A stretch of 62,230 bases of DNA, filler included, from Candidatus Delongbacteria bacterium (GTDB lineage: Bacteria; UBA4055): the NCBI GenBank assembly GCA_016937995.1. It is 6 parts of 6 records of this genome, joined end to end, with 100 filler letters (N's around TTAATTAATTAA, not from the genome) between each part and the next. Parts side by side here need not be neighbours in the genome. Positions count along the whole stretch, not along the records: positions 35,732 to 45,481 come from JAFGVM010000070.1; 5 more parts are not named here. One strand, written 5' to 3'. Every line of letters begins with the position of its first letter. Position 1 is the first letter of the stretch. The notes under the pieces are model-generated. The model was not told where the DNA came from, ran no database searches, and was given only the letters and a program-made list of their open reading frames with translations. The translations under genes and the position numbers were made by a program. Shown here piece after piece: positions 37,692 to 60,700 of the stretch.

Positions 37692-37820
37692 AATATATTT
37701 ATATCATCCGATAATCATACATTGTACAATGTAATTTGTAAATTGTCAATTATTTCATAGCATTTCAATGTTAGTTTTTTTACATTAACAACAAAGAAAC
37801 TAACTAAAACCTGCCGAATT

Positions 37821-40784: not shown

Positions 40785-40791
40785 TTTTATT

Positions 40792-41499
40792 CTAAATTTT
40801 CCCTGTCTCAAAATATTCGCTGATAATTTTTTTTATTTTCGATGCAGCAGTGGTTGCCCGTTCATAAAATGTATATGTAAAAATAGAGTCGTCTATTGCA
40901 AATGACTTATCCAGATTATTCAAAATCGAATATCTTGTGTATGAAGCAAATTGAGATACAGGAAGCACTTCCCCGCTTGTTCCGATTATTACAAGCAGAT
41001 CGGTTTTCATCAATTCATTATACAGCCTCTGATACATTGGAGCAGGTTCACCGAACATAACAACGTTATGTCTGAGAGAGTGACTTTTACACTCAGGACA
41101 TTCTGAGAATTCTTTTATAGATCTGTACTCAATGTCAAATTCATTCCCGCAAACTTCACACTTAAGCTCTCTTAACTTACCATGAAGATGTATTACTTCC
41201 TTACAACCTGATTTTTCCAACAGATCATCAACATTTTGAGTCATAACTGTAATATTTCCAGGGTATTTTTCTTTTAATCCACTTATCATAAAATGCGAAT
41301 CATTAGGTAATTTATCACTTATATCTTTTCTTCTTTTATCGTAAAAATCAAGAACAAGCTGCCTATCCTGAATAAATCCCTGAACGGAACATACTTCCAT
41401 AACATTGTGCTCTTCCCACATACCATTGTTGGACCTGAAGGTCCTTATGCCAGATTCAGCTGATAACCCAGCCCCGCTTAATATTAAAACTTTATTCAT
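40792..41499 (-). CDS. cobB: NAD-dependent protein deacylase (sirtuin)
   Basis: GAGLSAESGIRTFR, TQNVD, HLHG, Zn-binding CxxC pairs, IGTS. Confidence 0.92.
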   Translation of the reverse strand: MNKVLILSGAGLSAESGIRTFRSNNGMWEEHNVMEVCSVQGFIQDRQLVLDFYDKRRKDISDKLPNDSHFMISGLKEKYPGNITVMTQNVDDLLEKSGCKEVIHLHGKLRELKCEVCGNEFDIEYRSIKEFSECPECKSHSLRHNVVMFGEPAPMYQRLYNELMKTDLLVIIGTSGEVLPVSQFASYTRYSILNNLDKSFAIDDSIFTYTFYERATTAASKIKKIISEYFETGKI

Positions 41500-41738
41500 C
41501 TCACCAATTTTGTTAATAGTTATATGTAAACACTGATAAATTTAGTGAAACTATTTGATTTATCAAATTAATTTTTCTCATGTTTTTGTGAGTCAGGTAA
41601 CAAAATAGATGATTTGCATAGTAAAAAAACTATAATAAATTTCTTGACAAGGTTTATACACTAAATTATATTGATTCCCGTCAATATAAAAATAGATAGC
41701 TAAAATAGATAAAAACCAAAACCAAAAAGGGAGTAAAC

Positions 41739-43112
41739 ATGTCTAAATTGTTAAAGAAGTACATGGACCTTTTACAATCTAAAGATCCAAATCAGCCTGA
41801 ATTTATTCAAGCTGCTCAAGAAGTAATCGAAACGATCATTCCTGTTCTTGAAAAACATCCGGAATACGTAGAAGCTAAGATCGTTGAAAGAATGATTGAG
41901 CCTGAAAGAGCTTTCCAGTTCAGAGTTCCTTGGGTAGATGATAAAGGTGTTGTTCAGGTTAACAGAGCTTTCCGTGTTGAGTATAACAGTGCTATTGGTC
42001 CTTACAAAGGCGGATTAAGATTTCATCCAAGTGTAAACTTAAGTATCCTTAAGTTTTTAGGATTCGAGCAGGTATTTAAGAACAGTCTTACTACTCTTCC
42101 TATGGGTGGTGGTAAAGGTGGATCTGACTTTGATCCAAAAGGTAAATCTGACAACGAAGTTATGGCTTTCTGCCAAAGCTTCATGAGCGAGCTTTTCAGA
42201 CACATTGGCCCTAATACTGACGTTCCTGCCGGTGATATCGGAGTTGGTGGAAGAGAGATCGGTTATATGTTCGGACAATATAAAAAATTAAGAAATGAAT
42301 TCACTGGTGTTCTTACCGGAAAAGGAAGAAACTGGGGTGGTTCACTAATAAGACCTGAAGCAACTGGTTACGGTGAAGTTTATTTTGCTCAAAATATGCT
42401 AGCTGAGAAAAAAGATTCTCTAAAAGGTAAAATTTGTGTCGTTAGTGGATCAGGAAACGTTACTCAATACTGTATCGAAAAAGCTAATGAACTTGGTGCT
42501 AAATGTATTTCTGTTTCTGATTCTTCAGGTACTATCATCGATATGGAAGGTATCAGTGGAAAGAAATGGGATTTCCTAATGGAATTAAAGAACGTTAAAC
42601 GTGGAAGAGTTGAAGAATTCGCTAAGAAATTCAAGAGCTGTAAATACTATCCTGGCAAAAGTGTATGGGATGTAGTTGTTGAACAAAAGATCAAACTTGA
42701 CGTTGCATTCCCATCAGCAACACAGAACGAGATCACAGGAAAGCACGCAAAAGCTATGTTAAAGCAAGGTTTAAAACTTGTTTCTGAAGGTGCTAACATG
42801 CCTTCACTTCCTGAAGCTCAAGAAGAATACATCAAAGCTAAGATCATGTATGGACCTGCAAAAGCAGCTAACGCTGGTGGAGTTGCAGTTTCCGGACTTG
42901 AAATGAGCCAGAACTCTCTAAGAATGAACTGGACTAGAGAAGAAGTTGATAATCATCTAAAAAGAATCATGAAAGATATCCATGATAACTCTAAAGAAGC
43001 AGCTTTGAAGTATTTACCAAAAGAAAAAGGATTCATCAACTATATGGCTGGTGCTAATATCGCCGGTTTCATTAAAGTTGCTGATTCTATGATGGATCAA
43101 GGTGTTGTTTAA
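41739..43112 (+). CDS. gdhA: NAD(P)-specific glutamate dehydrogenase
   Basis: GPYKGGLRFHP, GGGKGG, DVPAGDIG, RPEATG, EGANMP motifs. Confidence 0.97.
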   Translation: MSKLLKKYMDLLQSKDPNQPEFIQAAQEVIETIIPVLEKHPEYVEAKIVERMIEPERAFQFRVPWVDDKGVVQVNRAFRVEYNSAIGPYKGGLRFHPSVNLSILKFLGFEQVFKNSLTTLPMGGGKGGSDFDPKGKSDNEVMAFCQSFMSELFRHIGPNTDVPAGDIGVGGREIGYMFGQYKKLRNEFTGVLTGKGRNWGGSLIRPEATGYGEVYFAQNMLAEKKDSLKGKICVVSGSGNVTQYCIEKANELGAKCISVSDSSGTIIDMEGISGKKWDFLMELKNVKRGRVEEFAKKFKSCKYYPGKSVWDVVVEQKIKLDVAFPSATQNEITGKHAKAMLKQGLKLVSEGANMPSLPEAQEEYIKAKIMYGPAKAANAGGVAVSGLEMSQNSLRMNWTREEVDNHLKRIMKDIHDNSKEAALKYLPKEKGFINYMAGANIAGFIKVADSMMDQGVV

Positions 43113-43137
43113 TTAACATATTTTGAACCGAATCTTA

Positions 43138-43167
43138 AAGGGCTGATCATCATTCAGCCCTTTTTTA
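43138..43167 (+). terminator. Rho-independent terminator
   Basis: AAAGGGCTGA-TCATCAT-TCAGCCCTTT plus T-run. Confidence 0.8.
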
Positions 43168-43214
43168 TTTTAGAATCCCTTCAGCAGAAAAATTAATAAG
43201 CATAAACATTATAG

Positions 43215-43243
43215 TTGCAAAAATATAAGTAGTTATATATATT
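43215..43243 (+). promoter_or_regulatory. Putative promoter of the integrase
   Basis: TTGCAA-17bp-TATATT; AT-rich context lowers specificity. Confidence 0.4.
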
Positions 43244-43276
43244 GATATTTTATAAAATTATATTTGATGTGAAAAT

Positions 43277-44149
43277 ATGAATGAAGAAGCTAAAGAGAAG
43301 TATCTCGATTTATTAAAACTTAAAAATTACAGTAAGGCCACGATAAAGTCTTACGGTCATTGCTTTGATCTGTTTTTGGAACATTTCAAAAATGTTGACA
43401 TTAATAATCTTACTAAAGACGACATCACAAGTTTTCTAATAAAAGAACATGAAAAAGGCTTATCATACGGTTATCAGAATCAGATAATCAATGCAATTAA
43501 GTTTTATTACGAGAAAGTTCTTAAGCAAAAGAGAGAACTTTATGATATCCCAAGAGCAAAAAGACCACAAAAACTTCCAGTTGTTTTCAGCGAAGAAGAA
43601 GTGCTCAAATTGATTGGAAGCATTGATAATTTAAAACATAAATCCATATTATACCTTATTTACTCTGCCGGATTAAGGATCAGTGAAGCAGTGAACATGA
43701 AAATTGCCGATATCGACTCAAAAAGAAATGTAGTGATCGTACGGGGCGGAAAAGGTAAAAAAGACAGGACAACACTTCTTTCAGAGAAATTACTTTTAAT
43801 GTTAAGAAAGTATTATGTACAGTTTAGACCTAAAGATTTTCTGTTTGAAGGAGAAAATGGTGGTCAATATTCTATAAAAAGTATACAGAATGTTTTCAAC
43901 AGGGCATTAACGAGATCTGGGATAAGAAAAAAAGCAACAGTACATTCATTAAGACACAGCTTTGCAACTCATCTACTTGAACACGGGACAGACTTAAGAT
44001 ATATTCAGCAATTACTGGGACATAACAGTTCAAAGACAACAGAGATATATACACACATTACGAAGAAGGGAATGGACAAAATAAAGAGTCCACTAGACAA
44101 CCTAGAAGTACAGGAGAAAAAAACGCCATATGGCGGTTTGCCATTTTAA
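43277..44149 (+). CDS. Tyrosine recombinase, integron-integrase-like but without the IntI-specific insertion
   Basis: SAM-like N-terminus (YS..TIKSY, QNQIINAIKFYY), YSAGLRISE, GKGKKDR, HSLRHSFATHLLE, LLGH..KTTEIYTH; short segment between DR and FLF. Confidence 0.93.
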   Translation: MNEEAKEKYLDLLKLKNYSKATIKSYGHCFDLFLEHFKNVDINNLTKDDITSFLIKEHEKGLSYGYQNQIINAIKFYYEKVLKQKRELYDIPRAKRPQKLPVVFSEEEVLKLIGSIDNLKHKSILYLIYSAGLRISEAVNMKIADIDSKRNVVIVRGGKGKKDRTTLLSEKLLLMLRKYYVQFRPKDFLFEGENGGQYSIKSIQNVFNRALTRSGIRKKATVHSLRHSFATHLLEHGTDLRYIQQLLGHNSSKTTEIYTHITKKGMDKIKSPLDNLEVQEKKTPYGGLPF

Positions 44150-44203
44150 CCAGGCACAAACTGGACAGCAAAACGCCATATGGCGTTTTGCCGCACGTTA
44201 GCT
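44120..44203 (+). other. Putative primary (attI-like) recombination site
   Basis: Direct repeat AAAACGCCATATGGCG(G/T)TTTGCC at 44120 and 44170; 24-bp perfect palindrome 44168-44191; ends in G|TTAGCT. Confidence 0.65.
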
Positions 44204-44314
44204 GAAATACCACACACAAAGGAGCTTTTTTATATGATCTATATTTTAGTTGAAATTAATAAAATATATTTGTACAATTCACTAGAAATCCAGTAATTAT
44301 CAGGAGGAAGTAAG

Positions 44315-44485
44315 ATGCAAAAACTTATCACGATTTATGTAAACGGTTTTAGACTAGAAGAATTTTCTGCTAATGAACATTTAAATAAATATCTTAGTGA
44401 TGGATGGTACATTGTTTCTGTTACGACAGCAGGTTCTGGTGAAAAAGTCAAATGGTTAATAACTGTTGTTTTAGGTAAAGACTGA
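44315..44485 (+). CDS. Small 56-aa protein, DUF4177-like
   Basis: Not in the ORF track; CAGGAGG RBS; MQKLITIYVNGFRLEEFSANEHLNKYLSDGWYIVSVTTAGSGEKVKWLITVVLGKD. Confidence 0.65.
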   Translation: MQKLITIYVNGFRLEEFSANEHLNKYLSDGWYIVSVTTAGSGEKVKWLITVVLGKD

Positions 44486-44492
44486 GCTGTAT

Positions 44493-45308
44493 ATGGCAAT
44501 GTTTATTAATATTTCTTGGCCACAAAACAAAAGGTTGAAAGTAGCAACTTCGGCTCATGCGTTCTCTTTGATACATAATTCTCTGAATACCTCAACTTTT
44601 GTTTCAATGATCGGGAGTGATTTGATTGTTAATGGATTATTTGACATCACGAACCTTGTTCCAGATGTTGATCGATATCGTATTTTGTCAAATGTACTAT
44701 CTTCACATAATAATTGTACGGTTTGTCCAAATAATAATAACTTTAAAGATATATTACCCAGCCAGTCATCCTCTTTTGATAAAACGATTGTTCTAGTTAT
44801 CGAATCACCTCACGATCATGAATTTATCTATTTAAATAATAATCTTGTCCCAATTGCACCCGCACAAGCTAATAAGAAAAAAAGAGGGGCTGGATTCGCT
44901 ATAGAAAATTATTTGAAATGTAACATCCTATCACAGATATCAAACTATCCACAACATAATGTCAGAATTATTATAGCTAATCCAATTCAATTTCAGACTT
45001 CGTTATTTGTAATTCATAAGAAAGGCGGTCGAATAGCAAAAGATCTTAGAAATTCGGTTTGGCAAGCCCTATGGCGTCAAAAAAATATTCGGGCCAATTT
45101 TTTTGATAGATTAAAATGCTATGAGCCGGATTTAATAATTAATTCTTGTACTGGGGGTCAAGATAAACGTGGTAGCTTGAATTATTTTATTAGTAAATTT
45201 CTTGTCCAGCACAGTTTTAGCTATATTTCTTATAAAACAGGTCATCCTTCATCTGTATGGTACAGAACAATAAACGGTCGTCCTTTTGCGAAGGTAACAA
45301 AAATATAG
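44493..45308 (+). CDS. Hypothetical protein, possible uracil-DNA glycosylase superfamily fold
   Basis: IVLVIESP, PDLII and GHPSS motifs in the order expected for UDG-like proteins. Confidence 0.55.
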   Translation: MAMFINISWPQNKRLKVATSAHAFSLIHNSLNTSTFVSMIGSDLIVNGLFDITNLVPDVDRYRILSNVLSSHNNCTVCPNNNNFKDILPSQSSSFDKTIVLVIESPHDHEFIYLNNNLVPIAPAQANKKKRGAGFAIENYLKCNILSQISNYPQHNVRIIIANPIQFQTSLFVIHKKGGRIAKDLRNSVWQALWRQKNIRANFFDRLKCYEPDLIINSCTGGQDKRGSLNYFISKFLVQHSFSYISYKTGHPSSVWYRTINGRPFAKVTKI

Positions 45309-45337
45309 GATAATATCTCTCAGTGTGTGGTACTTGC

Positions 45338-45409
45338 AGCTAACATTGGAAAAATGACTTGACCCGAGTTATATTTTATCTAGTGAGCTTTTTTCCATGA
45401 CCGTTATGA
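45338..45409 (+). other. attC-like hairpin site, copy 1
   Basis: AGCTAACATTGGAAAAA...TTTTTCCATGACCG|TTATGA. Confidence 0.8.
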
Positions 45410-45481
45410 TCAATTGCAACTTTAAATAACGGTAGAGGAGGTAGAAGATGTTATACAAGCCTATTTAACCCGATTAAAAAA

Positions 45482-45581
45482 NNNNNNNNNNNNNNNNNNN
45501 NNNNNNNNNNNNNNNNNNNNNNNNNTTAATTAATTAANNNNNNNNNNNNNNNNNNNNNNNNNNNNNNNNNNNNNNNNNNNN
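45482..45581. other. Artificial contig spacer
   Basis: N44-TTAATTAATTAA-N44. Confidence 0.99.
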
Positions 45582-46069
45582 AGATCAAAATCCTCTTTGC
45601 TAAGGTCGAACAGATCAAATTCTTCAAATTCATTCGTATAGTCTATGTAAAACCTGAGCTTCTGAAAGTTTGAAGTTATGACATATTTACAACCATCCTG
45701 ATTATTCTTATACCCGAAAGCCTGTTCAGTGATAAGCTTCAAATCCTTCGTCTTAGTAGATTTAAGCTCAATAACAGCAACAGCTTTCTCATCCTTCAAA
45801 ATTGCACCGTCAGCTTTCCTACCATCAGACTGATTCTTATGCTCACGAACAAGGTTGAAATTATCAGCAGGCTTCAAAGTATAACCCAGAACATCCACGA
45901 ATAAGTCACGCAGAAAACCGTCCTGATACTCCTCTTCCTTAAGCTCCTTTATCTGCTCTATCTTAGAATGTGAGAAGTTTTTCTGAAATACCTCGTAGGC
46001 TTCGCTGACCTTGGTTTTATCAAGATGTTTAAGGAACTGCTTAATTACCGATTTTTGAAACAATGGCAT
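45582..46069 (-). CDS. Fused restriction-modification enzyme (type IIG/Eco57I-like), N-terminal nuclease domain, cut by the contig end
   Basis: KEEEYQDGFL, ADGAI...VIELK PD-(D/E)xK motif, QAFGYK, ITSNFQKLRFY. Confidence 0.8.
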
Positions 46070-46113
46070 TGTATTATTTCCTTATTGTCTAGAGACTCAC
46101 AGGCAATTAGCCT

Positions 46114-46322
46114 GACAAGGGGATATATCCCCTTGTTGAGTCTCGATTGTTTTGTCATTGCGAGGATTTCAATGAAATCCGTGGCAATCTTGTTTTGCGT
46201 AAAAGCCGTTGCGGGGCAACGTCTTTACTTCATTCCCCTCCCCTGGAGGTGTGTCAGCCACAGGCTGACGGGGTGGTCACGTGTGCCGCGTTGTCCGGGG
46301 ACGAATGGGAATCGTCCCCTAC
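46114..46322. repeat. Mosaic of palindromic repeats
   Basis: Units matching 14475-14511, 14533-14558, 25370-25415 (reverse) and 25460-25485. Confidence 0.75.
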
Positions 46323-46497
46323 TTGCCACTTATCACTTACAACGTACCACTGTATTTTTATACTTTTCAATACTTATAAAGAATATATCTATGATATAAT
46401 GTTTGTGCAAATGATTTTATTATAAAAAGAGTCTCGGGTTGCGGGTTGTGCATCTTTTGACTTACCCGGCACTAAAAGTGGTTTCAACCTTCGGGAT

Positions 46498-46527
46498 AAA
46501 AAAAAAGCGAGTCTCTCAACTCGCTTT
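46498..46527 (-). terminator. Terminator after tRNA-Leu(TAG)
   Basis: AAAGCGAG...CTCGCTTT hairpin with T-run on the minus strand. Confidence 0.75.
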
Positions 46528-46531
46528 AACG

Positions 46532-46613
46532 TGCGGGTAAAGGGATTCGAACCCCCACACCCAAAGGCACCAGATCCTAAGTCTGGCGTGTCTGCCAATT
46601 CCACCATACCCGC
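46532..46613 (-). tRNA. tRNA-Leu(TAG)
   Basis: Cloverleaf; anticodon arm CCAGA-CTTAGGA-TCTGG; long variable arm. Confidence 0.95.
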
Positions 46614-47004
46614 AGCAGAGGCAAATATATATTTTTGAAATTTTATTGTCAAGGTTTTTTTTGACAATATAATACTCCGGTTAACAATACGGATTTATTC
46701 ATCAACTATGTTGATAAATTCAAAAATTGAAATTTTATTGTCAAGGTTTTTTTTGACAAATAGGATCTTTTGACTTTCACTTGAGAATTGGACATTCCTG
46801 CCTGTCCCGATTTATCGGGAGATATTCAAAACAGATTCTGAATCAAGTCCGAGTATAAATTTTTATTCCTTTATCTCTTAGCGGCTTTGTGATAAACTGT
46901 TTTGCATGGTTTTCTGCGAATAAATATAATTTGCTTTTAACATATCATTATAATAAATTATCCGTGGAAATTAACAGAAAACTATTAAGTATTTTGGAGC
47001 AAAC

Positions 47005-48543
47005 ATGCTTGAAAAGATAAAACAACTTGCAGAAAAAATAGGTATTCTTAAAAAGGGCGGTGGACAGGAAAAATTAGAAAAAAGAAGAGAAAAGGGCCTT
47101 TTGACCGCACGTGACAGGATCGAGCAACTTTTAGATAAGGGAACATTTAATGAAATAGATCTTTTCGTGGAACATCAGGGAAGAGATTTTGGACTGGACA
47201 AGCAAACTCTGGCAGGTGACGGAGTAATTACAGGTTACGGAAAAATAGAAGGAAGACCTGTTTGTGTATTCGCACAGGATTTTACTGTGGCAGGTGGTTC
47301 ACTCGGCAGAATGCATGCTGCTAAGATAACAAAAGTAATGGATATCGCTTCTAATATGGGCGTACCTATTATAGGAATAAATGACTCCGGTGGTGCAAGG
47401 ATCCAGGAAGGTGTGGACTCTTTAGCGGGATACGGAGAAATATTTTACAGAAATACTCTGAACAGTGGAAAAATACCTCAAATATCAGTAATAATGGGAC
47501 CTTGTGCCGGTGGTGCTGTTTATTCACCTGCGATCACCGACTTTGTGTTCATGACAGATAAATTATCAAAGATGTTCATAACCGGACCAAAAGTTATCGA
47601 ATCTGTACTTAACGAAAAGATCGATGCTGAAACACTTGGCGGTGCAAGAGTTCATAACGAGCTTACAGGTAACGCTCACTTCTTCTCAAGCACAGAACAT
47701 GAAACTCTTGATCAGATAAAAAAATTACTGAGATTCTTACCGTCAGCCTGGGATAAACCTGTTCCTGCAGTTGCACCAAAACCTCCGAAAACACATAAGA
47801 AAATTCATGATATAGTACCTGAAGACTCTAAGATAGGTTTTGATGTAAAAGAACTGATAGCTTATCTTGTAGATGATTCCTATTTCATGGAAGTTCAGGA
47901 GTTATTCGCTCCCAATATCGTAACAGGATTCGCTCATATGGACGGGAAATCGATCGGTATCGTTGCAAATAATCCTGCAAAAATGGCCGGTGTTCTTGAT
48001 GTTGACTCCAGTGATAAGGCAGCAAGATTCGTAAGATTCTGTGACTGCTTCAATATCCCTATTCTAACTCTTGTTGACCTTCCTGGATATTTACCTGGTA
48101 TCGATCAGGAGCATTTTGGAGTTATCAGACACGGTGCCAAATTACTTTACGCATACTCTGAAGCGACAGTTCCTACTGTTACAGTCGTGATCAGAAAAGC
48201 ATTTGGTGGCGGATATATTGCAATGGCTTCAAAGCACTTGAGAACGGATTTTGTTTACGCATGGCCTACTGCTGAGATAGCAGTTATGGGCGCTGAAGGT
48301 GCTTGTAATGTAGTTTTTGCTAAAGAGATCGCAGAGGCAAAAAATCCTGAAGCTGTAAGACAACAGAAGATCAAAGAGTATAAAGACAAGTATTCAAATC
48401 CTTACAATGCAGCTTCAAAAGCTTATATTGACGCTATTATTAATCCTGAGGATACAAGAAAACAGATCATTACTTCCTTTGAACTGGCTCAGAACAAAGA
48501 ATACGTCAAGAAAAAGCATAAGCATGGTTCAATACCGTTATAA
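47005..48543 (+). CDS. Acyl-CoA carboxylase/decarboxylase carboxyltransferase subunit (PccB/MmdA family)
   Basis: GDGVITG, DSGGARIQEG, GPCAGGAVYSPA, AWPTAEIAVMG, KHGSIPL motifs. Confidence 0.95.
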   Translation: MLEKIKQLAEKIGILKKGGGQEKLEKRREKGLLTARDRIEQLLDKGTFNEIDLFVEHQGRDFGLDKQTLAGDGVITGYGKIEGRPVCVFAQDFTVAGGSLGRMHAAKITKVMDIASNMGVPIIGINDSGGARIQEGVDSLAGYGEIFYRNTLNSGKIPQISVIMGPCAGGAVYSPAITDFVFMTDKLSKMFITGPKVIESVLNEKIDAETLGGARVHNELTGNAHFFSSTEHETLDQIKKLLRFLPSAWDKPVPAVAPKPPKTHKKIHDIVPEDSKIGFDVKELIAYLVDDSYFMEVQELFAPNIVTGFAHMDGKSIGIVANNPAKMAGVLDVDSSDKAARFVRFCDCFNIPILTLVDLPGYLPGIDQEHFGVIRHGAKLLYAYSEATVPTVTVVIRKAFGGGYIAMASKHLRTDFVYAWPTAEIAVMGAEGACNVVFAKEIAEAKNPEAVRQQKIKEYKDKYSNPYNAASKAYIDAIINPEDTRKQIITSFELAQNKEYVKKKHKHGSIPL

Positions 48544-48555
48544 CAATCTATTGTA

Positions 48556-48891
48556 ATGAAAAAAGAAACTCAGGGATACTATATGTCAGATCACTTAGAA
48601 ATAAACGGTATTAAATATAAAACTGAATTAACTCAGAAATATTTAGACCGCAAAGGTTATAAGTTAAAGAAAAATAATGATATTAGAGCTTTTATACCGG
48701 GATTGATCCACAAGATATTCTGCAAACCCGGAGACCGTATAAAACCAAATACACCGATAATATCACTTGAAGCTATGAAAATGTATAATAATATCACTTT
48801 GATAGATGAGATTATTATTCAGGATGTTCTGGTAAAGATCGGGGATTCGGTTGAGAAAGATCAGATACTGGTCACTTACAAACCTGTTTAA
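48556..48891 (+). CDS. Biotin carboxyl carrier protein
   Basis: LEAMKM biotinylation motif. Confidence 0.9.
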   Translation: MKKETQGYYMSDHLEINGIKYKTELTQKYLDRKGYKLKKNNDIRAFIPGLIHKIFCKPGDRIKPNTPIISLEAMKMYNNITLIDEIIIQDVLVKIGDSVEKDQILVTYKPV

Positions 48892-48896
48892 AATAA

Positions 48897-48927
48897 AAGA
48901 TCCCTGATTCTATCAGGGATTTTTTTT
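48897..48927 (+). terminator. Rho-independent terminator
   Basis: ATCCCTGAT-TCT-ATCAGGGAT plus T-run. Confidence 0.8.
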
Positions 48928-48934
48928 AATTTTC

Positions 48935-49318: not shown

Positions 49319-49440
49319 AATAACTCCCTCTATTGTTTGAAATTGATCGACCTATACAATATACGAAATTTCAACTGATGAATTAATGTAAAATTTTAGT
49401 TATATTTATCTTGTATAAGTGTACTTAATAGAGATCTACT

Positions 49441-52948: not shown

Positions 52949-52950
52949 CG

Positions 52951-55900
52951 TTATGATCAATTGCAACTTTAATGACGGTAGGAGGTAAAGATGAACAAGC
53001 CTATTTAACCCGATTTAAAAAATAATTATCTTGTTTCGGGAACAAGAAAACACTACATTAATCTAAACAATATTTTACAAACTAGAGGTATCGTATGAAG
53101 AAAATAGCATTACTCTTAGTTTTTATTGTATCATTGTCTTTATGGGCAATGTCAGATACAGCTAATACAGAACCCGTTGTAAAAGAAAATTCTCAGAAGC
53201 TAACACAAGAAGAACTGCATAATATTGCAGTAAACTACTATCATTACATGTTTGAAGAAGAACATGAATGGAAAGGTATTAGAGTTGATTCTTCACAATC
53301 AGTAATCAAAGATATCTTTCCGTATGTGGAAGATGGAATAACTCTCTTCTATACCGTTAATTTCAATCCTGAAGGACGAATTTATACTCCCGCATATAAA
53401 TTTGTATCAAGACCTATCTTCAAAAGAGGTAGTGGTACAGCAAAAAAAATAAAATCTATAGACGATAAAAAAGCTATGCCCTTCGCGGCAATGCGAGGTT
53501 TCCACTCCATAAGAGAAAAGACATTACAGGGGCTTCAAGGTAAGTGTGAACAAACCGAAAAACAAAAAAAGATGTGGGAAAAATTCAATAAACCACCTAA
53601 TCAGTTTCATGAAAGGGTTAACCATGGATTAGATTTCCGTCCTCCAAAGTGGTGGCTCGAAAAAAAAAACTTTAAAAGTAACAAAAATACTGAAGGAATG
53701 ATCCAGACGGAGTGGAATCAGTATTTCCCCTTTAATAATGACTGTCCGTCACACTCGACAGGTAAAACACTTGTAGGTTGTACACCTCTTGCAATGTCTC
53801 AACTTATGAAATATTATGAATATCCTGAGACTGGTTTAAGTTATAATTCATATGCCTGGTTTAACGGCGAAATCATAAGAACTTTAGAAGCTGACTTTGG
53901 ACTCACAACTTATGACTGGGCTAATATGCCTGCTTATGCAGATTCTTCAAGTTCTCAAACAGAACAGGATGCACTCTCAACTCTTTGTAAGCATGCTGGT
54001 ATTGCCTTAAATGCTGATTATGGTGTTGCTTTAGGCACAGCAGCTTGGGCTGATGACATACCTCACAATATTACAAAATATTTTAACTATACTTCCCAAT
54101 TAATGTCAGAAGTTGCGTGGTATCCTAATGGATTGGCAGACTGGAAAGATTCTCTGATCACTGCTATGCAGAACGGTAAACCTGTTTTATACTCTGCCTT
54201 TTGGAATAGTGACGATCCGGGCAGTCATACTTGGATAGTAGATGATTATAAAATTTCTACAGATGAATTTCACTTTAATATGGGCTGGTATCATCCTGAT
54301 AGTTTAGATTGGAATGACTGGTATCCTGCAGATGATTATTTGAAAGATCAAGATAAAGGTATATTCAATATCATACCAGATAGATCTACAAATGCTCTGC
54401 CTATTCCATATACCGAAACTTTTGAAAACACTTATACAAGTACAACTGTAGCAAGCTCACAAATTCCCAAATACATTGGAATAGAAGAAAACAATTATAG
54501 TACATTACCAGATGTCGGTTACCAAAACAGTAATGTACTTGCAAGATTCTACGTACCTGATTCAGAAGATAGTTTTATTATAAAAAAGATAAACCTTACC
54601 ACTGATTCCGTTCCAATACTTCGTTACAAATACAGGATCAACGATTATCAGAATATCGTAGAAGGTGACAGCCTAATAATTGAAGTTTCTAAAGATAACA
54701 GGCTTTCATGGAAAAAAATCTCTAAAATTGATCATTTGAACTACAATAACACATCATATTATGAAGATAAGATCGTAAGTCTGAATAACTTCAAAAATGA
54801 AATCGTAAACATACGATATCATTTTTACTCGGTCGACAATGCAAATGCATATGATTATTACATCGACGACATCAAAGTTGGTGCACTTGGTTTGCATTTC
54901 ACAGATATATCTTACGATGATATTTTACAGCCTAAGGATGCACAATCTATCAAGATAACACCTTCAATTACACCACCGAAATCCAAAGGTTTTGAAGATT
55001 ATGACATGGCTATGGATTTCTATGTAAAAGAAGATAGCACAGCTATGGATTATATCTTAATGTATTCTGATGAATTACTTGAAAATGGAGTATTTGAATA
55101 TCTTGATTGGGATACGATGGATTTGATGGGTAAAAAATATCTGATTAAAGCAGTTGCAAGAACAAAAAGCAATAATACTTCACTAGACAGCACAGAAACA
55201 AGAGTACAATTCAGTGGGAGAAAATGTTATGTAACTTATCCGGTCAGTTATCAGGATTCAACTACTTTCTTTGATGTTGAGTTACCATTGACAATTGAAG
55301 GATACATTGAAGCTGAGTTGTCCTTCAGAGACACTCTTGAGAGTGGTATAGTTTTAGTTGGTGGCTGGATCTATGATTTCCAGAAAAAATTGTGGACTTA
55401 TGAAGATGAATATGCAGACTCTAACTATTTCTGTGATCCAGAAAATTATATTTATGCTTTATCTAAAGAAGAAAGAGATAAGGCAGTATTTGAATATAAA
55501 GGAGCTGACTTAGATTATATTCCTGAGCACAGATATAGCAAAAATAACCTCAAAAGAATATTACAAGCACAATCTGGAACGGTTAAAGATATAAATCCAA
55601 GTGTAATTTCTAAGTCTCCAAAAGAGCATTTTCAATATAACCCCTTATCTGATCTTCAAAGTCTAAGTAAATATTATTCTAAAATTGAGGATGAGAGTAA
55701 ATTTGATTCAAGAGACATGGTACATTTTGATACAATTTATTATGAACACGCTACTTCTCTGAATCTGTTTCCAGGATTTTATGGTTTTGAAGGAGGTGCG
55801 TACTATAGTGAAAACCTTTGGGAACCAATAGCTGAACGTGACTACCCAATGATCTTGATTCCTAACTGGAAATTGAAGCTAAAAGAAGACCCTTGGTATC

Positions 55901-57391
55901 CTTATGCTATACCTCACAATTCGTTAAGAGAGTACGCACAGAATGATGATGTATACATAGAAATTTGGAGACCTTTTAATGAACCTAATGGTTATAATAT
56001 CGTCTATATTAACATTGCAAGAGATTCTGACAATACTGAAGTTGCTTCATTTCAAATAGATTACAATACAAAAGGCAAAAGATATGTTGAATGGGCAACA
56101 GATGGCACAACTCAACCCGGATTTTATACTATTACAGCTCATGAACAGTTTGAAGGTACGTCTGTAATTGTTTATCAGAGTGAAACTATTCAGATCTGCC
56201 CATTATACGAACACTGGGAGCACAGCGGTACATGGTCAGATATTTGGGAAATAAATGCGGATTCCGATTATTTTAAAATGTACAACTTTATTGCAGGTCA
56301 TCCTGGAATAGGAAATTATTCTCTCGGTGCAGCGTACGACACAGAAACTGGCGAATCTATTGACGAAAGTCTTTCATCTGATGTTGTTTCATTTAACCTT
56401 CAACACGATGCTGTATTTGAAGTTTTCATGGGATTACCTTATGATAGTGGCTTTGAAGATATGTATGCAGATTATAAAGTTCTCTTATCAAAAGATGGAG
56501 GAACAAGTTGGACAGCAATCGCATCAGCAGATAAAGATTTCTATAGTTCATTAGGATTTTCAGCTACTCCAGGTTACAAATTCTATAACTGGTTTACTAC
56601 AATAAAAAATACTGCATCAGAAGAAAACATGATCGTTAAATTCGTATCACAAAACCAAATTGCTCCGCAAGATACAATATCACAACAAATTTGCTTTGAT
56701 GAAATACAAATCAGATACAGAACTGAACCAGTTCCTGACGGAGGTCAAAATTTTGCAGGTATTACGGATGGTAGTAAAGTAGATTTAAGCTGGGATGCAC
56801 CTGTTTCAAAAGGATTACCATTAAACTCTTACTTAATCTATAGAAATGGATTACCTCTTTTTCAGACAACTTCAACCACGCATACTGATTATTCGATAAT
56901 TGAAGATACAATGTATAATTACTCAATTGTTGCCTTTTATGAAGATGCTACAACCGGAGCTACAGATTTTTCATCAATGCTTGATTGTAGTGTAGATATT
57001 TTTGTGTCTTCTATGACTACACCTGCGAATGTTACTATAGCTGAGAATGCAACGAATGTAACAATTACATGGGATGCTGTTACAGGAGCATCAAGTTATA
57101 AAGTATACTCTTCATCCGATCCATACGGAACATTTTCAGAGAATACTAGTGGTTCATTCAATGGTGAGCAATGGGTTGCTCCTCTTACTGAAAGCAAATT
57201 GTTTTATTATGTAGTAGCTACAGATGTTAGTAAGGAAAACAAGAAAATTACTAAAGAAAGAGAATATCGGGTTAAATAGGCTTTTTTTAAGACTACCTGA
57301 TAAAGTTGCAACAGATCATAACATTGGCAAAATATCAATGGTTACTTAGAGAGTTAACTAGGTTTATCCACACTACTTTTTGCCATGACCG
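52951..57391 (+). mobile_element. Large gene cassette (about 4.44 kb) carrying a C10 protease
   Basis: Starts G|TTATGATCAATTGCAACTTTA, ends TAAAGTTGCAACAGATCATAAC plus the hairpin site; second inverted block of 18/18. Confidence 0.75.
53095..57279 (+). CDS. Secreted peptidase C10 (streptopain/SpeB family) with prodomain and multidomain tail
   Basis: Signal peptide; WNQYFPFN, VGCTPLAMSQLM (Cys), SHTWIVD (His), HFNMGW; FN3-like C-terminal modules. Confidence 0.88.
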   Translation: MKKIALLLVFIVSLSLWAMSDTANTEPVVKENSQKLTQEELHNIAVNYYHYMFEEEHEWKGIRVDSSQSVIKDIFPYVEDGITLFYTVNFNPEGRIYTPAYKFVSRPIFKRGSGTAKKIKSIDDKKAMPFAAMRGFHSIREKTLQGLQGKCEQTEKQKKMWEKFNKPPNQFHERVNHGLDFRPPKWWLEKKNFKSNKNTEGMIQTEWNQYFPFNNDCPSHSTGKTLVGCTPLAMSQLMKYYEYPETGLSYNSYAWFNGEIIRTLEADFGLTTYDWANMPAYADSSSSQTEQDALSTLCKHAGIALNADYGVALGTAAWADDIPHNITKYFNYTSQLMSEVAWYPNGLADWKDSLITAMQNGKPVLYSAFWNSDDPGSHTWIVDDYKISTDEFHFNMGWYHPDSLDWNDWYPADDYLKDQDKGIFNIIPDRSTNALPIPYTETFENTYTSTTVASSQIPKYIGIEENNYSTLPDVGYQNSNVLARFYVPDSEDSFIIKKINLTTDSVPILRYKYRINDYQNIVEGDSLIIEVSKDNRLSWKKISKIDHLNYNNTSYYEDKIVSLNNFKNEIVNIRYHFYSVDNANAYDYYIDDIKVGALGLHFTDISYDDILQPKDAQSIKITPSITPPKSKGFEDYDMAMDFYVKEDSTAMDYILMYSDELLENGVFEYLDWDTMDLMGKKYLIKAVARTKSNNTSLDSTETRVQFSGRKCYVTYPVSYQDSTTFFDVELPLTIEGYIEAELSFRDTLESGIVLVGGWIYDFQKKLWTYEDEYADSNYFCDPENYIYALSKEERDKAVFEYKGADLDYIPEHRYSKNNLKRILQAQSGTVKDINPSVISKSPKEHFQYNPLSDLQSLSKYYSKIEDESKFDSRDMVHFDTIYYEHATSLNLFPGFYGFEGGAYYSENLWEPIAERDYPMILIPNWKLKLKEDPWYPYAIPHNSLREYAQNDDVYIEIWRPFNEPNGYNIVYINIARDSDNTEVASFQIDYNTKGKRYVEWATDGTTQPGFYTITAHEQFEGTSVIVYQSETIQICPLYEHWEHSGTWSDIWEINADSDYFKMYNFIAGHPGIGNYSLGAAYDTETGESIDESLSSDVVSFNLQHDAVFEVFMGLPYDSGFEDMYADYKVLLSKDGGTSWTAIASADKDFYSSLGFSATPGYKFYNWFTTIKNTASEENMIVKFVSQNQIAPQDTISQQICFDEIQIRYRTEPVPDGGQNFAGITDGSKVDLSWDAPVSKGLPLNSYLIYRNGLPLFQTTSTTHTDYSIIEDTMYNYSIVAFYEDATTGATDFSSMLDCSVDIFVSSMTTPANVTIAENATNVTITWDAVTGASSYKVYSSSDPYGTFSENTSGSFNGEQWVAPLTESKLFYYVVATDVSKENKKITKEREYRVK

Positions 57392-57394
57392 TTA
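57316..57394 (+). other. attC-like hairpin site, copy 2
   Basis: TCATAACATTGGCAAAA...TTTTTGCCATGACCG|TTA at the contig end. Confidence 0.8.
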
Positions 57395-57580: not shown

Positions 57581-57622
57581 GGATTGTAGTACTTACTCTT
57601 AAAAAAAAGAAAAATGAACAAG

Positions 57623-57704
57623 GGCTAACATTGGCAAAACATCAATGGGTTACTTGGATATTTAACTCGCTCTTCCCCACTGGTTTTTGCCATGACCGAT
57701 ATAA
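57623..57704 (+). other. attC-like hairpin site, copy 3 (non-canonical right junction)
   Basis: GGCTAACATTGGCAAAA...TTTTTGCCATGACCG|ATATAA. Confidence 0.8.
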
Positions 57705-60700
57705 GTACTATAAGTCCATCCGTCAGGTAATTGTCCGTTATTCTCAAAACTCTCAATTATTGGTAATATCGAGCTGCCTGAATTTGAACTTACGGTTATA
57801 CTTTTTGTGTCAGTTGCCCAGGATTCACCGATCGGTGTAGTATATTTTGCGATGACATAATAACTGTAAGTACCCTCAGGCAGGAAGCAATCTGTAAAAG
57901 TTAAATTTGTTGTAGAATTTAAATAACTTCCATTTCTGTATATGTCATATTCGATTGTCCCTGTTTTCGGTGGAGACCAGCTGAGGATAGCATTGGATTG
58001 TTCAGTACCTGTTCCGAGTGCCAACTCAAATGATTGCGGTCTTGGGAATGTAAGTTCTGTTGTAGTAAGACTGATATTACAGTCGAAAACAGATGTTTCC
58101 TTCAAAGTAGGATGATCTTCCAGCTTTCTGGTTATGGCGTATTCATAAGTTGTATTACTTTCAATTGCAGTATCAATAAATGTAGTTTCAACTGTTGTTC
58201 CTATTTTTGATCCGTCTCTGTATACATTAAAAGTATCGAGAGTTCGCGGTGAATCCTTTTTATAGTTCATTAGCCAGATAATACTGTTTGATTTATCTCC
58301 CTGGGTAGCTGATATGATAGTTGGAGCTTCAGGTACTTCTTCCTTAGTATACATTATTTTAATGTCGTCAATCGCGAAGGTTTGTTCTTTCCATGTCCAG
58401 TCATATGGTGTATAAAATTCCGGCTTTTCTGCTATTACAAATTTAAGCTGCACTTTAGTACCTGCCGATACAGAATCCCCTAAAGAGTAAAAGAACGGTC
58501 GCATACAATTCATCCAGCCTTCTGCTTCTCCGAAATAATCATCATAATCATCCTGTACAGGTTCATACACAGTAAACCAAGCTCCATTATTTATCTTTGC
58601 CTGTACCAGATAACGCGCATAAAGAGGCTGCCATTGTGTAGAATCGTTATCTAAAACTTCTCTCGGTAAACTGACCCATGCGCTTAAAATAGTATGGTGT
58701 GTTTCATTCAATGTTATTTCAGGTGTTACAATCGAAGTTGATACATGGTGATAAGTATCATAATAACCAAGAAGATTCTGCCATTCCAATGGATAATCAC
58801 CTGGAGATATTGATCTTCTGCTTATCCACCATTTGTCAGGATTAGCAGTACTTGAATTTTTGTCCCATCCTTCAGGCCAAAGGTACGGATAATCTTCAAA
58901 GTCATAATACATCGGTGGTATCTGTATCTCTTTTTCCTGCACGATATCTACACCAAGTGAATCATCATACCCAAACGCTTTTATCTGATAAAAGCCGGGA
59001 GTCTGATCATCAGATTTCACCCATCTCATTCCGTCTGACAATCTGAATGAGTCACCTGTTTCAGTACTTAATCCAACTGTTTTATTCTGATTAGAAAATA
59101 TCTGACTTCCAAAAATCCCTTCATTGGTTCTGGCAATCTCACTGCCGTTATGAGTTATTGTCAATGTGTCAATATAGACCGGAAAATCTGTGAATGGTCG
59201 CCAGATATAAACTTTAACATCCTGATTTTTTGAGTATTCTGTCTTTTCAACATATGGAATGAATCCATCTGCATAATATGTACTGTCACAATATAGAAAA
59301 TCACCATGAAGTTTCATTTTCCATGGAGGTATGATTATTTTTGTAGTATCGGGTAAAACTCCAATATATTCATCATCTGTAGGTTCTGCATCATATCCCC
59401 TTGCTATCAGATTATACACTCCCGGTTTCTCCAGATCGAATCTTTCATAACTCCATGTAACAGGATTATCTGTGTCTTTTGATGCTTTTGTTTCAGGTCG
59501 TTTCATTCGTTCATACACTACAGGAATATCATCTGATTTACCTGTAAATTTTAACGGTTCATTATTCCATGGCAATGCACCTGAATCAGTAGGCCATGTG
59601 TATTTATAATTTATAGGAATATCAGGAGTAAATTCATACATTGATAAAGTATCCAACTTAAAATCCTCGTTTATATTGCTACGATCTACGGAATTACTTT
59701 GGGTATCTACAATATCTCCCTCTACCGGGAACCCCAGAAAATCAGGCGTATATGATTCAAAATCCCATACACCATCAAATAAAGGTGTTGACATGGTATT
59801 TCCATCCCAGGATTTTCTTGTCGGATCAACTATTTTTGCATGGACTCCTTCACATACTTCAATATCATCTATCAGACAAAAATTCGAACTTCCTGAATAT
59901 TCAAATCTGAATCTGATGTTAACAACATCATTTTTATACTCATGAAGACTAACGATCTCATCTTTGAATTTATTCAAGTAATCATCAGCTTCGTAATTAT
60001 CTTTATCAAGGACATAAACCGATTCCCATGTCTCTCGGTTATCATTTGAAACTTCAACAATAACTGAATCACCTGTTGAGAAACCACCTTCATCAATAAT
60101 ATCAATCTTGAATTTAACTACAGGTGTTCTGTCGGAAGCACAGATCAGTTTTATTTTCTTGATGACGAACCATTGACTGTTATCTCCTGAATTTCTTATA
60201 TATAAACCTTTTTCTGTTGAGCCATATAATTGTGCGAAAAAAGTACTATAATTATCAAAATGATACAGTATGTGAAACTCCAATATTGGGCGGTATTTGA
60301 TAAATACTGCTTCCGATTATCACATCGTTAAAATCTTCTTTATAAGGTATAACCAATGCACTATCAGGATGATCCGGAATTGTATGAAATATTGCTTTTT
60401 GTGATGTTGTAATTGCTGACATAGGATACCAGTCATTGTAGGTTAAATTCGAATCTCCCATGTTAAAATTGAATTGATTATTGGGGTAATCATAACTGTC
60501 AATTATCCAGCTATGGTTGAAAGTTTGGGAGTTTATAGTTATGGGGCCACCATAAATAATAGGTTGTTTTCTAGCTAAACTCATCTTCAAACTATCAATC
60601 CAGATGTCTAAGGAAGCATACCAAGTTGCTTCTTCTCTTAATTGAGAAGTATAATTAAATTTTTTTGCTAATCCGTGAGGAATATCCTCTAAATTTTCAA

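Follow-up and report, generated by a model that had tools for sequence, protein, structure and literature searches.

A probable integron-like gene-capture platform beside an insertion-less relative of the integron integrases in Candidatus Delongbacteria

We analysed a stretch of DNA of 62,230 bases (hereafter the window) made up of six contigs with N linkers between them. On contig 3 a gene for a 290-aa tyrosine recombinase is followed by an attI-like site, a unit of 1206 nt, a hairpin (attC-like) site and the start of a further unit, which runs to the contig end (Table 1). The gene and one complete unit are physically linked on this contig, while two further hairpin sites, B and C, lie on the separate contigs 5 and 6. 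A first-pass annotation of the window had described a recombinase with an R-K-H-R-H-Y set, a palindromic site after its stop codon ending G/TTAGCT (the slash marking the proposed crossover), a 1.2-kb unit ending AGCTAAC and a hairpin site ending G/TTATGA ahead of the next unit, and all of these elements are present. Its claim that the hairpin site recurs on two other contigs held for the sites themselves, although site C ends GATATAA and not GTT.

Table 1 Features of the recombinase locus and the associated units, with positions along the whole window
Feature	Position	Strand	Content or evidence
Tyrosine recombinase gene, 290 aa	43277..44149	+	ORF; Pfam Phage_integrase 3.6e-40 and N-terminal SAM-like domain (SAM_4)
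attI-like site	44120..44204	+	Palindromes, spacer CGCAC, then G/TTAGCT; fold, recurrence in relatives
Cassette 1, 1206 nt	44198..45403	+	Ends with AGCTAAC (45338-45344) in site A; two ORFs
Cassette 1 ORF, 56 aa	44315-44485	+	ORF call
Cassette 1 ORF, 271 aa	44493-45308	+	ORF call
attC-like site A	45336..45409	+	Covariance model, 76.3 bits
Cassette 2 start	45404..45481	+	Leader, ribosome-binding-like GGAGG, 6-codon mini-ORF 45448-45468; contig end
Contig 5 cassette, ~4.4 kb	52950..57391	+	Starts GTTATGATC, ends GATCATAAC plus site B
Contig 5 ORF, 1394 aa	53095-57279	+	Peptidase_C10 domain, Pfam 1.9e-41
attC-like site B	57311..57394	+	Contig 5 end; covariance model, 65.4 bits
attC-like site C	57618..57707	+	Near start of contig 6; covariance model, 71.3 bits

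The catalytic residues of the recombinase, assigned by motif position, are R134, K162, H223, R226, H249 and Y258. Its score lies just below the cut-off of the NCBIfam model XerA_Arch (217.7 bits, cut-off 220) and also below those of XerD (192 bits, cut-off 329.6) and XerC (191.9 bits, cut-off 335.15). As the first-pass annotation had anticipated for the integrase, the standard integron integrase model TIGR02249 misses it (214.4 bits in a match split in two stretches, cut-off 265), and the IntI model NF011946 gives 148.7 bits against a cut-off of 435. In an alignment to VchIntIA (PDB 2a3v) residue 178 of the query corresponds to chain residue 179 and residue 203 to chain residue 247, leaving some 42-43 VchIntIA residues without a counterpart; the IntI-specific additional domain, which carries the I2 helix between the K and HxxR motifs, is absent. 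The spacing from GKGxKxR to HxLRH is accordingly short, at 65 residues compared with 107 in IntI. The same K-to-H spacing of 65 was found in 13 of 34 family rows (those matching the motif pattern), while all 13 IntI rows had 107 and nine of ten Xer-like rows 69-73. The best solved relatives are archaeal XerA proteins (4a8e, 2.3e-42; 5hxy, 5.1e-38) and the closest homologues are from Candidatus Delongbacteria MAGs.

Placement in a tree with IntI and XerC/D, as the first-pass annotation had proposed, put the family (34 rows, SH-aLRT 96) as sister to IntI (13 rows, 99) and outside the IntI clade, the joint branch (SH-aLRT 100) standing apart from ten XerC/D-like rows; the tree was a quick search on 57 rows that sampled few IntI lineages, contained branches flagged as long and had SH-aLRT values as its only support. 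The single housekeeping copy at dif that characterizes Xer recombinases was not seen in the relatives, as judged in the long-read genome G001, which holds three identical family copies and two other Xer-like genes. Modules upstream of the gene in that genome were considered as shuffled cassettes and, from their coordinates only, are better explained as insertion sequences inside a RhuM-like gene.

Downstream of the recombinase, a perfect 24-bp palindrome (44168-44191) is followed five bases on by G/TTAGCT, 48 nt past the stop codon, and a near-copy of this palindrome, a 23-nt near-palindrome at 44120-44142, falls within the last codons of the gene. The crossover would lie between the G at 44197 and position 44198, placing an attI with a G/TT crossover beside the integrase gene as in integrons. 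The 101-nt attI-like region folds better than shuffled sequence (z -5.75 and -5.42; 0 of 200 shuffles as low). A palindrome, 3-12 nt and GTT after the stop codon occurred in 42 of 144 related loci and was absent from the other 102, whereas shuffled regions showed this layout in 7 of 144 cases and upstream windows in 10 of 133. Similarity is also seen between the attI right arm and the 3′ arm of the hairpin site of the same lineage, both in the window (TTTTGCC-GCAC-GTTA and TTTTGCCATGACC-GTTA) and in the related locus L083 (attI TATAGCC-ATAC-GTTA, hairpin site TTAGCC-GTATCC-GTTA).

The hairpin sites have the general form AAC-AT-(8-bp arm)...(8-bp arm)-TGACC-G/TT. Site A consists of R″ AGCTAAC (45338-45344), the spacer AT, L″ TGGAAAAA (45347-45354) and a variable centre, followed by L′ TTTTTCCA (45390-45397), the spacer TGACC and R′ G/TTATGA (45403-45409). 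Site B has R″ TCATAAC (57316-57322) and an R′, GTTA, cut by the contig end. Site C has R″ GGCTAAC (57623-57629), a degenerate 3′ box (GATATAA, 57698-57704) and a next gene on the minus strand; this site may close an array, and the third and last site of the related locus L081 is degenerate in the same manner (CCGAT). Sites of attC type are thus found in direct orientation between units, with boxes that fit RYYYAAC in part and with site C lacking GTT. The first-pass annotation had taken the boxes AGCTAAC, TCATAAC and GGCTAAC as deviating from RYYYAAC; this holds in part, but the deviation is minor because AAC/GTT is retained.

A covariance model built from six sites and run over the window with filters off, in line with a scan suggested by the first-pass annotation, recovered the three window sites at 65-76 bits with a next best hit of 14.3 bits. 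In 98 of 100 related loci it found no sites, the only matches being in L081 and L083, and the sites are therefore lineage-specific. A search of 160 loci for the sequence pattern of the site ends returned scattered single half-site matches only. Across seven sites 88.1% of cells were paired, compared with 32-40% when the partners were slid, and five of the eight arm pairs had changed on both sides, which 0 of 500 shuffles reached. An asymmetry between a 2-nt and a 5-nt spacer was kept in all seven sites. Taken alone, the core hairpins showed no more stable folding than shuffled sequences (z -0.11 to -1.14), except for that in L083 (-3.8).

The ends of the units are linked by a much longer complementarity. 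The first-pass annotation was right that start and end boxes are complementary, but the pairing extends far beyond the 7-nt box that it had seen. The first ~55 nt of cassette 1 are complementary to the last ~49 nt before its AAC (score 37, shuffle maximum 27) and the ends of the contig 5 cassette over ~57-65 nt (score 53, shuffle maximum 26). In the window lineage the start and end of the unit are complementary from GTT/AAC outward over 22-65 nt in six of six units. Because the end of a unit is complementary to its own start, the long hairpin would form only in the circular form, and the match between end box and own start follows the circular-cassette logic of integrons. When the end of a unit was joined to its own start the junction folded at -29 to -51 kcal/mol (z -4.2 to -13), with -29.1 kcal/mol (z -4.99) for cassette 1 and -41.0 kcal/mol (z -8.17) for the circular junction of the contig 5 cassette, compared with a mean of -13.9 kcal/mol (n=20) for ends joined to the start of a foreign unit.

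The cassette 1 proteins belong to no Pfam, NCBIfam or PADLOC family, and the 271-aa protein matched unnamed clusters only in the Atlas. L081 also carries a 271-aa ORF, which we considered as a homologue; the two are unrelated despite their equal length. A promoter scan placed a promoter-like TTGAAA-17-TACAAT at 44250-44278 in cassette 1, and the start of cassette 2 is 87.5% identical to the start of contig 5. This promoter-like site and the large size of the units, 1.2-6.2 kb, count against reading the locus as a platform. Among the cargo observed are a large secreted C10 protease, surface proteins and a defence-like helicase, which suggests that the platforms store niche and defence genes.

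Comparison with relatives supported the first-pass description of an integron-like cassette platform with an enzyme lacking the IntI insertion and an array 3′ of the gene. Relatives at 72-74% identity share this layout but carry unrelated cargo. In L081 (74% identity) an attI-like site is accompanied by three sites that delimit units of 4.5, 1.06 and 1.1 kb, and L083 (72% identity) has one 6.2-kb unit. No fixed gene order of the kind raised in the first-pass annotation was seen, cargo and flanks differing in all the relatives compared, with no flank or cargo in common among them. Sites in the relatives were confined to the gene's own strand and to the region downstream of it. We also followed loci by a strict walk, in which the 12-mer of a unit start has to be found inverted at the unit end, followed by a hairpin and then GTT. 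Of 79 loci, 14 passed, with 20 steps between them, and the other 65 were negative; 79 shuffled loci gave no step. Some relatives have ssb immediately downstream of the gene, which counts against the platform reading.

Evidence for the position of the crossover came from copies that part company. The three copies in one long-read genome have gene and palindromes in common and diverge right at GTT, and near-identical integrase-attI copies elsewhere likewise part exactly at GTT. Sequencing runs X1, X2 and X3, the last from another study, were compared as assembled contigs, a form in which circular or deleted molecules cannot show. Two contigs of run X1 depart from site A right after GTT (45405) into sequence resembling the start of the first unit of L081. 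One contig of run X3 contains 79 nt of the cassette 2 start with 0 differences, and in a second the cassette 2 leader is preceded by an attI-like palindrome ending just before 45403. The system is not peculiar to the window and is widespread.

The likeness to integrons extends to a recombinase gene beside the insertion site, a G/TT crossover, co-oriented units ending in imperfect AAC...GTT hairpins, an end box matching the unit's own start, and unrelated, variable cargo. The closest are sedentary chromosomal integrons, the reverse-orientation Spirochaetota type and archaeal integrons. Unlike integrons, the window has an enzyme that lacks the IntI insertion and fails both IntI models, and its lineage has a start/end complementarity of 22-65 nt where integrons have 7, sequence-conserved arms and spacers, units of 1.2-6.2 kb and an attI with one or two strong palindromes. 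The co-oriented array downstream of the gene, which the first-pass annotation had taken as distinctive, is present but not unusual, since an attI downstream of the gene and a reverse orientation are reported for archaeal integrons and Spirochaetota IntIs in the text consulted of PMC9668308. The array-downstream orientation is already known. In the passages available to us, integron-mediated recombination is said to need the IntI insertion (Ghaly 2022, PMC9668308), which is also described as essential to the function of integrons (PMC8138268), and the acquisition of the extra domain is presented as the key innovation in the passage from double- to single-strand recombination (Escudero 2016 and 2020). 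The nearest published statement, again from a partial text, is that the insertion 'is not fully conserved' in an integron-like subgroup (PMC8138268). In the literature we found no description of insertion-less integrases with arrays, the supplements, which might list such proteins, lying outside the search.

Systems based on XerC/D provide a further comparison. Acinetobacter pdif sites flank plasmid modules in inverted orientation and use the host XerC/D, whereas the window sites are direct repeats beside a dedicated recombinase gene. Both have gene modules bounded by short Xer-type sites, as described for pdif in the part of PMC7399989 consulted. In CTX-phi and IMEX elements the substrate of a recombinase without I2 (XerCD) is a single strand folded so that its stem imitates a core site with two arms, a parallel to the substrate proposed here, and IMEX-type elements have been proposed as forerunners of cassettes (Escudero 2016, in the portion seen). 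Unlike these, the window-type element carries a dedicated recombinase gene of its own, and related genomes have separate Xer-like genes; the system also has multi-unit arrays, several platforms per genome and a target that is not dif. The window enzyme shares its size, two-domain fold and catalytic residues with the XerA, XerC and XerD resolvases, but it scores below all Xer cut-offs, and its family is sister to IntI, can be multi-copy and has its gene followed by a palindrome-plus-GTT site and variable units.

Other explanations of the locus have to be weighed against this background. The sites could be ordinary attC sites of a classical integron (CALIN) on which an IntI elsewhere in the genome acts, the adjacent Xer-like gene being a bystander. 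They do keep AAC/GTT and the attC layout, the window covers only part of its genome, and classical IntI is common, exceeding the cut-off in 90 of 301 genomes sampled from the phylum of locus L012; both types, the insertion-less family and classical IntI, coexist in some genomes such as G145. This account is nevertheless unlikely, as the gene family, the palindromic GTT site and site-bounded units recur together in distant lineages, the attI right arm resembles the 3′ arm of the lineage's own hairpin in the window and in L083, and none of five genomes with family members had an IntI above cut-off, separate Xer-like genes being present there. We give similarly little credence to a Xer-type chemistry in which the units would be integrative elements in tandem at a dif-like double-stranded core, both strands being exchanged as in IMEX elements or Acinetobacter pdif modules with no folded single strand. 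What such a chemistry leaves hard to explain is the private 22-65 nt stem of each unit, formed only in the circular form, which a purely double-stranded site would not call for. Pairing of the arms is moreover maintained by compensatory changes and the spacer asymmetry is kept in all seven sites. The presence of three platform copies in one genome argues that the target is not the chromosomal dif site. The enzyme does lack the I2 helix and has a XerA-like score close to the cut-off, the site can be read as a pair of arms separated by a 4-5 nt spacer, the core hairpins fold weakly, and double-strand activity is given as the ancestral state in the passages of Escudero 2016 consulted.

The repeats might also have nothing to do with the recombinase and represent a miniature inverted-repeat element (MITE) or an intergenic palindrome of REP type, in which case the 'units' would be no more than the genes between copies. 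Depth fits this, site and leader reaching ~50x that of the flanks in two runs (summed contig depth in run X1 was 750-786 at site A and 14.7-18 in the flanks), as does contig 5, where the leader at one end is matched by its inverse at the opposite end. The left flank of site A, however, pairs with the start of cassette 1 while its right flank is the leader of another unit, so the halves do not travel together as those of a MITE would. Given also that the outer repeats differ between units with no common terminal sequence, that every junction falls at GTT and that the sites of relatives are confined to the downstream side and strand of the gene, we regard a mobile or intergenic repeat as very improbable.

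We consider it probable (roughly 0.75) that the locus forms the head of a platform for integron-like gene capture, operated by a sister family of IntI that lacks the insertion, and we infer that the array is driven by the window recombinase. In such a platform the recombinase would bind the palindromes and the arm-spacer-GTT core of attI on one side and the folded hairpin of a circular, probably single-stranded, cassette on the other, with strand exchange at G/TT; as in integrons, attI would receive incoming cassettes, and recombination between adjacent sites would release them. The I2 helix of classical integron enzymes contributes to stabilising and orienting the folded site, which it does by gripping extrahelical bases. 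Here the same role may fall to the long outer stem private to each cassette, in which a bubble 9-12 nt from GTT is conserved, together with the fixed 2-nt and 5-nt spacers. Somewhat short of even odds, in our estimate, is the wider proposal that a large sister family of IntI, which never had or has lost the I2 insertion, performs true cassette capture on folded single-stranded sites, with sequence-conserved arms, a fixed asymmetric spacer and a long private outer stem replacing the I2 helix.

Both the definition of integron integrases and the searches for them rely on the extra domain. Since the enzyme beside this array lacks the segment thought to define IntI, it may reveal how integrons function, or came about, in the absence of that segment. 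If the wider proposal is true, the 'additional domain' is not required for integron-type recombination, and such platforms are far commoner than IntI-based surveys show, in Delongbacteria, Bacteroidota and Marinimicrobia. The family would then represent the natural intermediates whose absence is remarked on in the part of Escudero 2020 that we consulted ('the lack of intermediates'). A natural and widespread family without I2 beside attC-type arrays would open the origin of integrons, including the choice of strand, to bench experiments. It would also imply that surveys based on IntI count too few gene-capture platforms in environmental phyla, and would supply new structure- and sequence-specific recombination sites.

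We searched the whole window, with filters off, using a covariance model with six sites as input, and recovered three hairpin sites at 65-76 bits (site A at the end of contig 3, site B at the end of contig 5 and site C near the start of contig 6), the next best match scoring 14.3 bits. As just these three sites were recovered, far above the next match, the first-pass annotation was correct in describing a recombinase gene followed by a palindromic site and a hairpin-bounded unit, with the hairpin site recurrent on two more contigs. In site A, AGCTAAC and AT precede two complementary 8-nt arms separated by a variable centre, after which come TGACC and GTTATGA, the contig ending 78 nt beyond. 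Site B closes contig 5, cut at GTTA, and site C lies 125 nt into contig 6. Some details of the original description required revision: one complete unit, and no more, is physically linked to the gene; site C terminates in GATATAA, not GTT; and the hairpins are present but their cores alone do not exceed shuffled sequences in stability (z -0.11 to -1.11). The 101-nt attI-like region, containing the palindromic site just 3′ of the gene, has folding energies of -25.8 and -24.3 kcal/mol for its two strands (z -5.75 and -5.42 against shuffles). Contigs 3, 5 and 6 end inside or beside a hairpin site, as is typical of assembly breaks at repeats.

Features of the window and of two related recombinase loci (L081 and L083, each numbered separately)
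Feature	Sequence	Position	Remarks
Contigs 1 to 6	Window	1-25004, 25105-35631, 35732-45481, 45582-52848, 52949-57394, 57495-62230	
Filler	Window	25005-25104, 35632-35731, 45482-45581, 52849-52948, 57395-57494	N44-TTAATTAATTAA-N44
Glutamate-dehydrogenase-like gene	Window	41739-43112	Upstream of recombinase gene
Terminator-like hairpin	Window	43137-43163	Between glutamate-dehydrogenase-like gene and recombinase ORF
Recombinase ORF, 290 aa	Window	43277-44149	Near end of contig 3
Near-palindrome, 23 nt	Window	44120-44142	Overlaps final codons of recombinase ORF
Perfect palindrome, 24 bp	Window	44168-44191	3′ of recombinase ORF; followed by CGCAC, then GTTAGCT with G at 44197
Cassette 1 unit, 1206 nt	Window	44198-45403	ORFs of 56 and 271 aa, two proteins without known family; terminal box AGCTAAC
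Contig 5 cassette	Window		Cargo: 1394-aa protein with Peptidase_C10 domain
Hairpin sites	L081	15417-15492, 16478-16557, 17592-17670	Bound units of ~4.5, 1.06 and 1.1 kb
Cargo	L081		T9SS-sorted beta-helix protein, FGE-sulfatase-family protein, methyltransferase
Cargo	L083		1628-aa DEAD+UvrD helicase matching DpdF and GajB defence models
Cassettes with start/end bubble	Window	44197, 52950	
Cassettes with start/end bubble	L081	10869, 15483, 16548	
Cassette with start/end bubble	L083	1742	

Complementarity between the boxes at the two ends of a unit was also present but proved far longer than originally noticed. In all six units of this lineage (two from the window, three from L081 and one from L083) the start, read inward from GTT, is the inverted complement of the end at AAC over 22-65 nt, with local scores of 33-66 against shuffle maxima of 25-33 (200 shuffles per unit). 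A small bubble, the same in each of the six, breaks the pairing 9-12 nt from GTT, with AA of the start facing two or three unpaired bases of the end; this bubble may be a mark for recognition or strand choice. When the end of a unit (hairpin up to the G) was joined in silico to its own start, the junctions folded at -29.1, -41.0, -48.4, -30.7 and -50.8 kcal/mol (z -4.2 to -13; none of 100 shuffles as low), whereas joins to the start of another unit averaged -13.9 kcal/mol over 20 combinations, the lowest being -19.8. Each unit therefore owns a long hairpin present only when it is circular, in which GTT sits inside, at the base of the inner arm, and such a unit-owned hairpin is a prediction of a mobile cassette. 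The leader common to two cassettes contains mini-ORFs of 5-6 codons (MLYKPI or MNKPI) after a strong GGAGG (45448-45468 and 52991-53008), which may encode a small translated leader or may arise incidentally from the stem; the inverse of this leader occurs at the opposite end of the contig-5 cassette.

The same site type and site-bounded units were found in relatives. L081, a metagenome contig of 180 kb, encodes a recombinase 74 % identical to the window enzyme, and the stop of this gene is followed by a palindrome, seven bases and then GTTGTAGG. The sites of L081 share AACATTGG...CCATGACCGTTA with those of the window, while the arms differ through compensatory changes. L083 (72 % identity) has one 6.2-kb unit with an end site of the same geometry and another arm sequence. 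Across seven sites, aligned by fitting to the covariance model, which favours structure, 88.1 % of cells pair compared to 32-40 % with slid partners, and both-sided change was seen in five of eight arm pairs, a level reached by none of 500 shuffles. A strict walk (GTT near the stop, an inverted 12-mer with ≤ 2 mismatches ending AAC, a hairpin scoring ≥ 11 and ending GTT, then repeat) was applied to the 79 loci having 1 kb or more of downstream sequence. It took 20 steps, spread over 14 loci, whereas the other 65 loci and all 79 shuffled versions yielded none. AAC and the closing GTT are 114-121 nt apart in 12 of the positive loci and 77 nt apart in two. A perfect 7+7 palindrome with GTT following within 3-12 nt lies just 3′ of the stop in 42 of 144 loci, the corresponding counts being 7 of 144 for shuffled regions and 10 of 133 for upstream control windows. 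Certain relatives (L029, L045, L056 and L066) have an ssb gene directly 3′ of the recombinase, thus the family is not always array-linked. The flanking genes and cargo of the window have no counterpart in the related loci L081-L086 or L001-L006, so the order of genes after the integrase is not fixed across them.

Divergence at GTT was seen both between gene copies and between samples. A long-read genome (G001) contains three mutually identical copies (L004, L005 and L006) of a 63 %-identical recombinase gene, with identical palindromes, and identity between L004 and L005 stops at GATGTT. Part of a RhuM-like gene upstream is also identical among the three, and in two copies this gene contains insertion sequences of 1591 bp and ~2.3 kb (by coordinates). 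Near-identical platforms from other samples differ past GTT, reading GTTAGCC, GTTGTGT, GTTAGCG, GTTAGAC, GTTATAC, GTTATGC and GTTATAT. We compared metagenomic contigs from three public sequencing runs (X1, X2 and X3) with 41700-45481. Summed contig depth, which is not a copy number, was 750-786 over 45256-45481 in X1, which may derive from the source sample (14.7-18 in the flanks), and 144-164 in X2 (~5 in the flanks), thus site A and its leader are on many contigs. Over the attI palindromes (44113-44239) the summed depth in X1 was 83, compared to ~18 in the gene, and the palindrome region is therefore also on other contigs of the community. Two X1 contigs depart from the window just past 45405 (GTT) into sequence resembling the start of the first unit of L081. 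In X3, which comes from another study, one contig matches the window without a difference over 79 nt from 45403, and in a second this point is preceded by a palindrome and seven bases, an attI-like context. These alternative joins at GTT, each on single metagenome contigs, are suggestive and not proof. In X1 and X2, one contig each links 44730 to 45407 with a change of strand, the shorter side being only 31 letters long; a repeat may have been joined here by chance, or the site may have taken part in an inversion. A miniature transposon, considered as the origin of the hairpin sites and judged unlikely, would not predict such unit-owned hairpins: cassette 1 forms the left flank of site A and a different unit the right.

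The enzyme was matched by Pfam models for Phage_integrase (3.6e-40) and an N-terminal SAM-like domain, and has the catalytic residues R134, K162, H223, R226, H249 and Y258. Its NCBIfam scores fell below each cut-off: XerA_Arch 217.7 bits (cut-off 220), XerD 192 (329.6), XerC 191.9 (335.15) and the integron integrase model TIGR02249, matched in two stretches at 214.4 (265). Alignment to the solved Vibrio integrase 2a3v places enzyme residues 178 and 203 opposite chain residues 179 and 247, therefore ~43 residues of IntI, which includes an additional domain with the I2 helix, have no counterpart; the C-terminal tail, SPLD included, is alignable. GKGxKxR and HxLRH are spaced 65 residues apart in the enzyme and in 13 of 34 family rows (those matched by the motif pattern), compared to 107 in all 13 IntI rows, including plasmid IntI1, and 69-73 in nine of ten Xer-like rows, confirming the proposed absence of the insertion. 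A quick IQ-TREE search (57 rows, 298 columns kept, SH-aLRT only; L082, truncated, and L073, a wrongly picked paralogue, omitted) placed the family (34 rows, support 96) as sister to IntI (13 rows, 99) on a joint branch of 100, apart from the Xer rows (E. coli XerC and XerD with eight Xer-like proteins from genomes also containing family members), in a tree with long branches flagged among Xer rows, narrow IntI sampling and a root set by outgroup choice.

The nearest homologs (73-86 % identity) are named as coming from Candidatus Delongbacteria MAGs. Relatives at 50-65 % identity are very common, with at least 569 among at least 597 matched stretches in species-representative genomes, the best 80 being chiefly from Bacteroidota with some from Marinimicrobia and Ignavibacteria. 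Many Bacteroidota relatives, 370-558 aa long, carry a long N-terminal extension before the recombinase core; these include L012, L029, L031, L045, L047, L050, L051, L056, L066 and L108. We sampled 301 species-representative genomes from the phylum to which L012 (Nibribacter, Bacteroidota) belongs. A full-length IntI scores above the TIGR02249 cut-off in 90 of them, and 174 contain a match at E ≤ 1e-25; classical integron integrases seem far from rare in this sample.

With regard to cargo, the 271-aa protein of cassette 1 falls in unnamed Atlas clusters with a weak fold resemblance to UDG/DUF1643 (TM 0.43-0.46). Three successive minus-strand ORFs (199, 265 and 873 aa) 3′ of site C at 57662-61609 run against the direction of the site and by eye resemble a split paralog of the C10 protease gene on contig 5, the N-terminus being similar; this could be a frameshifted copy or reflect assembly errors.

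A literature check for novelty found no description of arrays beside insertion-less integrases in the main texts of open-access articles. A passage of Smyshlyaev 2021 (PMC8138268) states that the insertion 'is not fully conserved' in an integron-like subgroup, and in passages of Escudero 2016 and 2020 the gain of I2 is regarded as the innovation, with intermediates noted as lacking. The position of the array downstream of the gene, put forward as a departure from integrons, is not new. The window system would work in the same manner as an integron; its enzyme falls outside IntI by the insertion, by both curated models and by tree placement. Most likely the enzyme would bind the attI palindromes and the arm-spacer-GTT core, as well as both arms of the folded cassette hairpin, with strand exchange at G|TT, so that cassettes would enter at attI and leave by excision between sites. 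The parts, their conservation, their pairing and the divergence at GTT are directly observed; recombination by this enzyme, with a folded single strand as the substrate, is what we infer from them. In both the window and L083, the attI right arm is similar to the 3′ arm of the hairpin from the same lineage, a likeness that favours the action of a single enzyme at the two sites. The feature is real, and we consider the integron-like reading, well supported by comparison, to be likely, with a probability of about 0.75. What is new here is the absent additional domain, the long private stems in the lineage and the sequence-conserved arms.
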